From sequence record MH445380.1: DNA of 64,000 nt; one strand, written 5' to 3'. The DNA comes from Escherichia phage P1. The notes beneath the pieces are model-generated. The model was not told where the DNA came from and did no database searches. It saw only the letters and a list, made by a program, of their open reading frames with translations. This document shows, in pieces, positions 28,653 through 29,268 of the stretch. The translations under genes were made by a program, and so were the position numbers. Position 1 is the first letter of the stretch. Every line of letters begins with the position of its first letter.

Positions 28653-28904
28653 TTAGTTACCGCTGATAGCGCGGTTGTAATCATTAACGTTGCGATTCTT
28701 CCTGTTAATCCCCATCAGCATCGTTTCTGTATCGAGGATATACGCTGGCAGATCATCAAAATATTCACTGCTAAACTCTGGCATCCTGCACATAAATGCA
28801 CTTTTTGGGGCAGGGTGGTTAACCTTTGTCGGCGTCGGCGTTAAATTCGCTGATCGACTCCCGGAGCAACCGCTGAGTGTCAGCAGGAATACGCTGGCGA
28901 ACAT
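28653..28904 (-). CDS. Small lipoprotein, o-spanin (Rz1)-like, overlapping the upstream gene
   Basis: Starting at the internal Met (MFASVFLLTLSGCSG..): signal peptide plus lipobox, then a proline-containing mature part; starts inside the 3' end of 28819-29268 in another frame. Confidence 0.45.
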   Translation of the reverse strand: MFASVFLLTLSGCSGSRSANLTPTPTKVNHPAPKSAFMCRMPEFSSEYFDDLPAYILDTETMLMGINRKNRNVNDYNRAISGN

Positions 28905-29268
28905 TACCCGCCGCAACAAGTTGTTTCTGAACTTCAGCTTTTCGTTCCATTTGCCTGTCAGCATACTTGGCTTGTTCTGATTCATTTTTCACTTCCTGGC
29001 TGTGAAAATGTTGCTCTGCTTTGTTCATCGTCTCAATGGTCTGGTTAAGATCCATTATTGACTTATCACGTTCCTTAACAGCCTGATCAAGACTGCCAAT
29101 TTTCTCCATGGCTTGCTTTAGCTGATGACGTTCCCACGCAAACCCAGCACCAACAAGTGCGCAAATCAGAACAAGAACACCAGTAGCAGCAAGTTTCTCC
29201 TTCAAAGACAAAGCTGTTTTTAATGTAGAAAAGAATGACATGTCTTCCTCCTGAAGAAAAATTATCAA
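28819..29268 (-). CDS. Membrane-anchored coiled-coil protein, i-spanin (Rz)-like
   Basis: N-terminal TM helix (TGVLVLICALVGAGFAW) followed by a charged periplasmic coiled coil, ~140 aa; the 3' end is overlapped out of frame by the lipoprotein gene. Confidence 0.45.
   Translation of the reverse strand: MIIFLQEEDMSFFSTLKTALSLKEKLAATGVLVLICALVGAGFAWERHQLKQAMEKIGSLDQAVKERDKSIMDLNQTIETMNKAEQHFHSQEVKNESEQAKYADRQMERKAEVQKQLVAAGNVRQRIPADTQRLLRESISEFNADADKG

Follow-up and report, generated by a model that had tools for sequence, protein, structure and literature searches.

Two overlapping genes, ppfA and mlp

The ppfA and mlp genes lie overlapped on the minus strand of a 64,000-nt stretch of DNA from Escherichia phage P1 (record MH445380.1), and together they very probably encode the two-component spanin of a P1/P7-type phage-plasmid, for which a lytic role is predicted. 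We refer to the whole stretch as the window, and coordinates are positions in it unless another molecule is named. Megablast aligns region 28400-29500 with Punavirus P1 MH422554.1 at 100% identity and with the P1 reference NC_005856 at 97.1%, and the region also matches 692 plasmid records, mainly of Escherichia and Salmonella. The assignment of the window to a P1/P7-type phage-plasmid therefore comes from these matches and from the P1 gene content. The genes beneath the match in the P1 reference are ppfA (“possible periplasmic function”) and mlp (“membrane lipoprotein precursor”), and RefSeq now labels P1 mlp as an “Rz-like spanin”. An initial annotation made from the sequence had already read the locus as an overlapped inner-membrane/outer-membrane (i-spanin/o-spanin) pair; that reading agrees with the standing view in the literature, with a curated entry and with the homology to P2 LysB/LysC described below.

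As criteria for two-component spanins we use the operational set of Summer 2007 / Kongari 2018. In this set, an i-spanin has an N-terminal transmembrane (TM) segment, an N-in/C-out orientation and a largely helical periplasmic domain, and PpfA is predicted to have all three. The ppfA gene (28819-29241, minus strand) encodes a predicted type II inner-membrane protein of 140 aa with a helical periplasmic domain, as indicated by the open reading frame (ORF), the identity to P1, Table S1 of Kongari et al. 2018, the match to PHROG 89 and the ratio of non-synonymous to synonymous change (pN/pS). The mechanical ORF is longer (29268-28819, minus strand, TTG start, 149 aa). The initial annotation gave a protein of about 140 aa and this ORF's coordinates; the length stands and the start does not. 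We dropped TTG 29268 in favor of ATG 29241, which is almost certainly the start and is preferred because the Shine-Dalgarno (SD) sequence AGGAGG (29247-29252, minus strand) stands 5 nt upstream of it. The curated spanin table gives the same SD site, P1 RefSeq and that table both use the same ATG, and diverged homologues keep an SD-like GGAGG before it.

The predicted TM helix covers PpfA residues ~17-36 (LAATGVLVLICALVGAGFAW; 29134-29193, minus strand) according to the Kyte-Doolittle profile and AlphaFold2. The best 19-residue Kyte-Doolittle window is at residues 17-35 with a score of 2.35, and the N-terminal 16 residues have a net charge of +2, which predicts an N-in orientation. The periplasmic part has 104 residues, 36% of them charged, with one Pro and no Cys. 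The AlphaFold2 model of the monomer, which is moderately reliable (17 homologues; mean predicted local distance difference test score, pLDDT, of 67), has a helix at residues 13-110 that includes the TM segment, a break at 111-119 (AAGNVRQRIP), and a second helix at 120-137. Hydrophobic periodicity at 3.5 residues is above that of shuffled sequences (p ~0.016), and the power peaks at 3.6 residues (1.17 versus 0.91). Because the power is higher at 3.6 than at 3.5, an amphipathic helix is supported and a coiled coil is not specifically supported. Thus, of the TM helix and periplasmic coiled coil first described for this protein, we retain the TM helix and replace the coiled coil by an amphipathic helical domain.

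The mlp gene (28653-28985, minus strand) is in the +1 frame relative to ppfA, and encodes the predicted o-spanin precursor, a 110-aa ORF with a mature form of 71 aa, as indicated by the ORF, RefSeq, Kongari et al. 2018 Table S1, PHROG 30284 and a BLASTP match to LysC. An o-spanin has a lipobox Cys without a retention residue at +2. In Mlp, the lipobox L-S-G-C is at 28866-28877 (minus strand) with the Cys codon at 28868-28866, and the Ser that follows at +2 is not an inner-membrane retention signal. The lipobox is kept in 9/9 sequences, in the variants LSGC, LVAC, LSAC, LNGC and LNAC, in each case as Cys-Ser. A strict lipoprotein N-terminus pattern occurs just twice in the six frames of the 64-kb window. 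The mature protein includes one further Cys and 6 Pro (8%), five of them within the first 30 residues, so the prolines reported earlier for the mature lipoprotein are indeed there. The spanin set also asks for at least one periplasmic Cys in either subunit, a rule that holds for 507/528 two-component systems (Summer 2007 / Kongari 2018). Here it is provided by Mlp Cys66 of the precursor, Cys27 of the mature form (28788-28790, minus strand), which by sequence and alignment is the only periplasmic Cys of the complex and a candidate for a homotypic disulfide. The check for periplasmic cysteines that the initial annotation suggested thus yields this one residue and none in the periplasmic domain of PpfA. 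The second Mlp Cys, in the motif AFMCRMPE, is found in 10/11 sequences of the P1-type alignment, in P2 LysC, and in 5/5 translated lineages. It is part of the conserved C-terminal domain of Mlp (…AFMCRMPEF..EYFDDLPAYILDTETML..INRKNRNVN.YNR…), which is encoded outside the overlap (28653-28818, minus strand) and is delimited by pN/pS and by near-invariant columns.

The overlap and the start of mlp

The set also expects the o-spanin gene to be embedded in, to overlap or to adjoin the i-spanin gene on the same strand, and mlp runs in the +1 frame over the end of ppfA. By these coordinates, the dual-coding overlap is 167 nt long (28819-28985, minus strand). Its frame 0 specifies residues 86-140 of PpfA, and its frame +1 the signal peptide of Mlp with a Pro/Thr-rich N-terminal linker. 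In the diverged lineages the overlap is 164 nt.

We find that mlp most likely starts at ATG 28985, the start of the curated 110-aa form. This ATG is favored because it is the sole universally conserved start and comes with a Shine-Dalgarno sequence. The SD is AGGAAG (28992-28997, minus strand), 6 nt before the ATG and inside the PpfA codons Q82-E83-V84; PpfA residues Q82, E83 and K85 are invariant in the alignments. The distal ATG together with an SD-like element (AGGAAG, AGAGG or AGGAGG) is present in 9/9 sequences, with duplex free energies of -7.2 to -14.3 kcal/mol. The initial annotation placed the lipoprotein gene at 28653-28904. Its frame and its stop at 28653 hold, the start at ATG 28904 does not, and the overlap is 167 nt and not 86. 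As a start, ATG 28904 is a Met in the P1 clade alone and a Leu elsewhere, and it leaves a signal peptide of 12 residues without a basic residue.

An internal start may also serve. The alignment points to a possible second start at codon 24 of mlp, a TTG at 28914-28916 (minus strand) that would give a canonical signal peptide of 16 residues, MRRVMFASVFLLTLSG. Codon 24 is ATG in 6/9 sequences, TTG in P1 and in the window, and absent in L011, and its SD is poor in most sequences. It aligns with Met1 of P2 LysC. The distal and codon-24 starts lead to an identical mature lipoprotein. From the distal start, the signal peptide is conserved in length and strongly basic, with a net charge of +6 in the window. 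With the lysis genes of this phage spread over several operons, an exceptionally long, basic signal peptide of 38-39 residues, dual starts, or both might adjust how fast or when the o-spanin is exported, which we regard as unlikely. More simply, the distal ATG would be just the start, and the 23-residue extension would have no special role.

Earlier records of the pair

The overlapped ppfA/mlp spanin pair is already known, having been catalogued in 2007 and 2018, and it has little value as a discovery. Bednarek et al. 2022 (PMC9025707) credit the identification, from predicted features, to Summer et al. 2007. They describe partially overlapping P1 spanin genes whose operon is not linked to the remaining lysis genes. 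The comparison with curated spanin sets that had been proposed for this locus leads directly to Table S1 of Kongari et al. 2018 (PMC6139136), where the pair is entered for both P1 and P7. The P1 row has gp064 as the i-spanin and gp063 as the o-spanin, and the P7 row has Upf62.7/Upf62.4; the class is “ovl” and the family “P1”. The i-spanin is entered with 140 aa and without any Cys in the periplasm (“one in TMD”). The o-spanin is entered with 110 aa, 71 aa mature, the lipobox TLSG|C and one extra Cys; LipoP puts its cleavage site at position 39, and the curators comment “Too long signal sequence”. P1 gp064 and PpfA of the window are 99.3% identical, with I45 in P1 and M45 in the window, and the P1 Mlp has W23 where the window has L23. 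Gene order, the 167-nt overlap, the lipobox and the Cys pattern are alike in the P1/P7 pair and in that of the window, which differ by point differences only.

What remains of value is practical, in that the spanin role in P1 is still a prediction, records are mislabelled or shortened, and the literature is ambiguous about where mlp starts. Bednarek et al. 2022 (PMC9025707) swap the roles, with ppfA as the o-spanin and mlp as the i-spanin, and the sequences indicate the opposite. Public gene calls often shorten mlp to the 45-65 codons past the ppfA stop, by which the signal peptide and the lipobox are lost. An example is MH422554.1, where an “outer membrane lipoprotein Rz1” is called at 46 aa, and the mlp calls at loci L002, L011, L013 and L014 are shortened or omitted. 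In plasmid and prophage records, ppfA, mlp and their operon neighbors are mostly labelled “hypothetical protein”.

Conservation and selection on both frames

In diverged P1-like elements, PpfA is 47-64% identical to that of the window, and all these elements keep the order PAAR-like upfC, upfB, 140-aa ppfA, mlp, repA. The lipobox Cys, the Ser at +2 and the second Cys of Mlp are conserved across eight lineages. Outside the overlap, ppfA has pN/pS of 0.18-0.43. In the 52 codons past the ppfA stop, the mlp frame has pN/pS of 0.15-0.24, versus 1.2-4.2 for the remaining two frames over the same codons. Inside the overlap, the ppfA frame has pN/pS of 0.14-0.59, and the mlp frame has 1.0-2.5, which resembles an off frame apart from the conserved lipobox. 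The ppfA frame thus dominates the overlap, and a drifting mlp frame fits a signal peptide followed by a flexible linker, in which only the hydrophobic core and the lipobox would matter. Judged by these substitution patterns, ppfA and mlp are both real genes and both under purifying selection.

Relationship to P2, lambda and T4 spanins

The closest characterized relatives of both proteins are in phage P2. PpfA matches PHROG 89 “Rz-like spanin”, the P2 LysB family, with E = 1.2e-25 (residues 21-139 on profile positions 3-137 of 143), where P2 LysB itself has E = 5.8e-61. Mlp matches its own family, PHROG 30284, with E = 3e-57 and PHROG 456, the P2 LysC family, with E = 8e-5. The match is reciprocal, as P2 LysC matches PHROG 30284 with E = 5e-4, and by BLASTP Mlp and P2 LysC are 37% identical over 68 residues (E = 1e-7). 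The top NCBIfam matches point the same way below their thresholds: PpfA has 19 bits to TIGR03495 (LysB; cut-off 92.75), and Mlp 14.7 bits to NF038368 (LysC; cut-off 27). By these comparisons, PpfA and Mlp are distant relatives of P2 LysB and LysC, not equivalogs. P2 LysB/LysC, the prototype of overlapped spanins, is built like the P1 pair, with an i-spanin of 140-141 aa and an o-spanin that runs in the +1 frame from the 3’ part of the i-spanin gene past its stop, and P2 LysC and Mlp have in common the Cys in the “..C.MP..” o-spanin motif. Two differences are that the P2 pair follows holin Y, endolysin K and lysA within a lysis cassette, whereas the P1 pair is unlinked, and that Mlp has a basic extension of 23 residues ahead of the position aligned with LysC Met1. 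In word-indexed protein searches and tblastn against GenBank phages, we find the pair only in P1-like elements and in Cronobacter phage JK004, and these searches bring no new lysis-cassette context for close homologues of PpfA and Mlp.

The experimentally characterized Rz/Rz1 pair of lambda resembles the P1 pair in predicted topology and presumed mechanism. The layout in common is a type II helical inner-membrane protein, a lipoprotein that is Pro-rich N-terminally, and a periplasmic Cys for a homotypic disulfide. The details differ. Lambda Rz1 lies entirely within Rz whereas the overlap of mlp with ppfA is partial, lambda Rz has two periplasmic Cys and PpfA none, and mature lambda Rz1 is 40 aa with ~25% Pro, compared to the 71 aa and 8% Pro of mature Mlp. 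We rejected membership in the lambda Rz/Rz1 families, given this overlapped and not embedded arrangement and the search results. In a scan of all Pfam families with E up to 0.1, PpfA and Mlp match no spanin family. Lambda Rz and Rz1 fall in PHROG 13 and 3198, neither of which is matched by the P1 proteins, and BLASTP of PpfA and Mlp against lambda Rz and Rz1 is not significant (E = 0.26 and 0.005). The name “Rz/Rz1”, with which the initial annotation described the architecture of the pair, is valid for P1 only as a functional analogy.

Phage T4 provides an experimentally supported precedent for an unlinked spanin. As in P1, pseT.3/pseT.2 are away from the holin and endolysin genes, and the T4 i-spanin is without a periplasmic Cys. 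The T4 spanin genes differ in being separated and not overlapped, and the T4 o-spanin has two essential Cys.

Genomic position and expression

On the P1 map, lyz-lydD-lydE are at 20.0-20.9 kb, lydB-lydA-lydC at 30.4-31.5 kb and ppfA/mlp at 63.35-63.94 kb, that is, ppfA/mlp are >32 kb from lydB/lydA/lydC and >42 kb from lyz-lydD-lydE. These distances bear out the earlier remark that the spanin, if this is it, is not linked to the other lysis genes, an unusual trait already known for P1. The accompanying remark that no holin or endolysin is evident in the window is true for the known P1 set: a tblastn search of the window with P1 Lyz and LydA-E has a best E of 0.19, and no general endolysin/holin profile scan of the ORFs was made.

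The two genes belong to a transcription unit upfC-upfB-ppfA-mlp-upfA (28249-30362, minus strand), as indicated by the P1 annotation, PHROG/Pfam matches and RNA sequencing (RNA-seq). The unit directly adjoins oriR/repA, and a terminator scan finds a terminator-like hairpin (28236-28220) just before oriR and repA. In the P1vir RNA-seq data (PMC8201110, Table S1; wild type), the genes from upfC to upfA go from 4.1-5.6 at 10 min to 10.5-11.2 at 30 min, with ppfA going from 5.6 to 11.2 and mlp from 4.1 to 10.5. The lysis genes behave likewise (lyz from 6.1 to 11.3, lydA from 5.2 to 11.8), and lydB and the structural genes follow the same pattern. Early genes such as uhr and parA do not share this pattern: uhr-hrdC-dmt go from 8.6-9.4 to 11-12 (uhr from 8.6 to 11.1), and parAB from 9.2-9.5 to 11.4 (parA from 9.5 to 11.5). 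Late co-expression with the lysis genes is a usual property of spanins and not a strict criterion, and ppfA and mlp have it.

For late promoters, we used the pattern AAGTNAYTT-N4-TANNNT with at most one mismatch, built from two annotated P1 promoters, LPlyz and LPdar. Elsewhere in the window than the 28-31 kb region, it has 6 sites, hardly more than the 2.3 expected by chance. We also observe a weak half-site, AAGTTAAAA-TAAC-GAAAAT, ~23 nt before the GTG of upfC (region 30363-30480, minus strand), which adjoins the C1 operator of the divergent dmt promoter.

A probable spanin role and its alternatives

In the mechanism that we propose, PpfA would be anchored in the inner membrane with its N-terminus inside, and its ~100-residue, mostly helical domain would be in the periplasm. 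Translation of Mlp would run in the +1 frame and most likely begin at ATG 28985, which has its own SD inside ppfA; Mlp would then be exported, lipid-modified at Cys40, cut by signal peptidase II and Lol-sorted to the outer membrane. Its 52-residue C-terminal domain would bind the C-terminal part of PpfA, making a complex that spans the periplasm through the peptidoglycan mesh, and its mature Cys27 would probably link two Mlp molecules through a disulfide. Late in infection, the holins LydA, LydC and LydD would trigger, and the signal-arrest-release (SAR) endolysin Lyz would destroy the murein. The freed spanin complexes would then collapse and fuse the inner and outer membranes, removing the last barrier to virion release. 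We infer the export, binding, disulfide and fusion steps from the lambda Rz/Rz1 model and from the relationship to P2 LysB/LysC.

Several observations weigh against a spanin role. The function is experimentally unverified in P1 according to Bednarek et al. 2022 (PMC9025707). In sequence comparisons, PpfA and P2 LysB are not significantly similar in pairwise BLASTP (E = 57), and neither PpfA nor Mlp reaches any Pfam or NCBIfam spanin model above threshold. The signal peptide from the conserved start of mlp, at 38-39 residues, is unusually long and was flagged by the curators. As for late transcription, the Lpa-type late-promoter pattern, which derives from two promoters only, has no match between 28 and 31 kb, and the promoters predicted there in the P1 record (P1ppfA and P2ppfA, inside upfB) are all of the sigma-70 type. 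Finally, under genome-wide CRISPR interference (CRISPRi), P1 plaquing is essentially intact, with efficiencies of plaquing (EOP) of 1.3 and 1.2 for ppfA and 0.24 and 0.19 for mlp, in a study where lambda Rz was scored essential. The CRISPRi result is the main empirical caution on the spanin role. It does not refute that role, because lysis in shaken laboratory cultures can proceed without spanins (Bednarek et al. 2022, PMC9025707).

We weigh three alternatives against the spanin reading. The lipoprotein frame could be a chance open frame, with ppfA as the sole real gene. The off-frame-like pN/pS of at least 1 for the mlp frame inside the overlap would agree with this, as would the many automated gene calls that omit or shorten mlp, but past the ppfA stop pN/pS is low in the mlp frame (0.15-0.24, compared to 1.2-4.2 in the remaining two), the SD with its ATG, the lipobox Cys, the Ser at +2 and the second Cys are present in 9/9 sequences, and Mlp is homologous to P2 LysC. 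This alternative is effectively refuted. In another, both proteins are real components of the envelope with a non-lytic role (conversion, exclusion, or one associated with plasmid maintenance), and the spanin-like architecture is coincidental or ancestral. The pair is directly beside oriR/repA/parAB and not beside lysis genes, the P1 record has two sigma-70 promoters inside upfB and no late promoter, with none found by motif, and the CRISPRi knock-down is tolerated. The lipoprotein/secreted-helical pair Upf50.5/Upf50.0 in the window (see below) moreover shows that such pairs exist outside lysis. We still consider a non-lytic role improbable. The RNA-seq signal is low at 10 min and up by 5.7-6.9 log2 units by 30 min, like that of lyz, lydA and the structural genes and unlike that of par or early genes; the nearest characterized relatives of the two partners, found independently, are P2 LysB and LysC; and the gene order, the +1 overlap, the Ser at +2 and the single conserved Cys are kept across eight lineages. 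Tolerance of a knock-down is weak evidence here, given that spanins are dispensable in shaken cultures (PMC9025707).

The remaining alternative is a functional but redundant spanin, in which P1 has some other route through the outer membrane and the pair contributes only in particular hosts or conditions. Both genes are non-essential by CRISPRi, with only the mild effect of mlp (EOP ~0.2), and the multi-holin lysis system of P1 is unusually complex and has been interpreted as an adaptation to different hosts. Against redundancy, no second spanin or disruptin candidate was identified in this analysis, a knock-down differs from a null, and purifying selection on Mlp is strong (pN/pS 0.15-0.24). 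We give redundancy very little chance, and keep the two-component spanin with a predicted lytic role as the preferred reading.

Neighboring genes and other features of the window

The other members of the operon, taken from the P1 annotation and all on the minus strand, are upfC (PAAR-like, 30362-30078), upfB (30126-29281) and upfA (28641-28249). The upfC product is a 94-aa PAAR-motif protein that matches PHROG 281 with E = 2.5e-30 and the Pfam PAAR_motif family with 26 bits (cut-off 27). The P1 record describes upfC as similar to T4 gp5.4. The overlap of upfC with upfB is 49 nt. The transcript of the spanin genes thus also includes a spike-tip-like gene. UpfB has 281 aa and a Gly/Ser-rich linker, and matches no known family. 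The gene after mlp varies. The window and P1 have UpfA there (130 aa, PHROG 1453), as apparently does L011 (129 aa). In several diverged P1-like elements, UpfA is replaced by a Gp49-family protein (PF13876, 117-121 aa), as at L008 4197-4562, L009 4209-4562 and L013 2097-2462.

The window has a second envelope pair at 12475-13539 (minus strand), which corresponds to P7 upf50.5/upf50.0 and is in place of P1 simABC, so that at the sim locus the window resembles P7 and not P1. Upf50.5 is a 173-aa lipoprotein (13539-13018) with the lipobox LLSGC and a glycine-zipper-like region, and Upf50.0 is a secreted, highly charged, helical protein of 179 aa (13014-12475). We do not retain this pair as a rival spanin candidate; the curators first took Upf50.0 for the Rz of P7 and then dropped it (Kongari 2018 table). 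RefSeq and PHROG 1277 label Upf50.5 as a “DNA methyltransferase”, which looks like a misannotation.

Three tRNA genes are on the plus strand at 34403-34556 and 36361-36436, for Asn (GTT), Thr (TGT) and a CAT anticodon, the last of which ARAGORN reports as Met. In P1 the tRNA with this anticodon is annotated as tRNA-Ile. Positions 1-2309 of the window are the invertible C segment, the variable region of the tail fibre, which is inverted with respect to the near-identical MH422554.1. The window starts inside the C segment, a few kb beyond cin and lydC.

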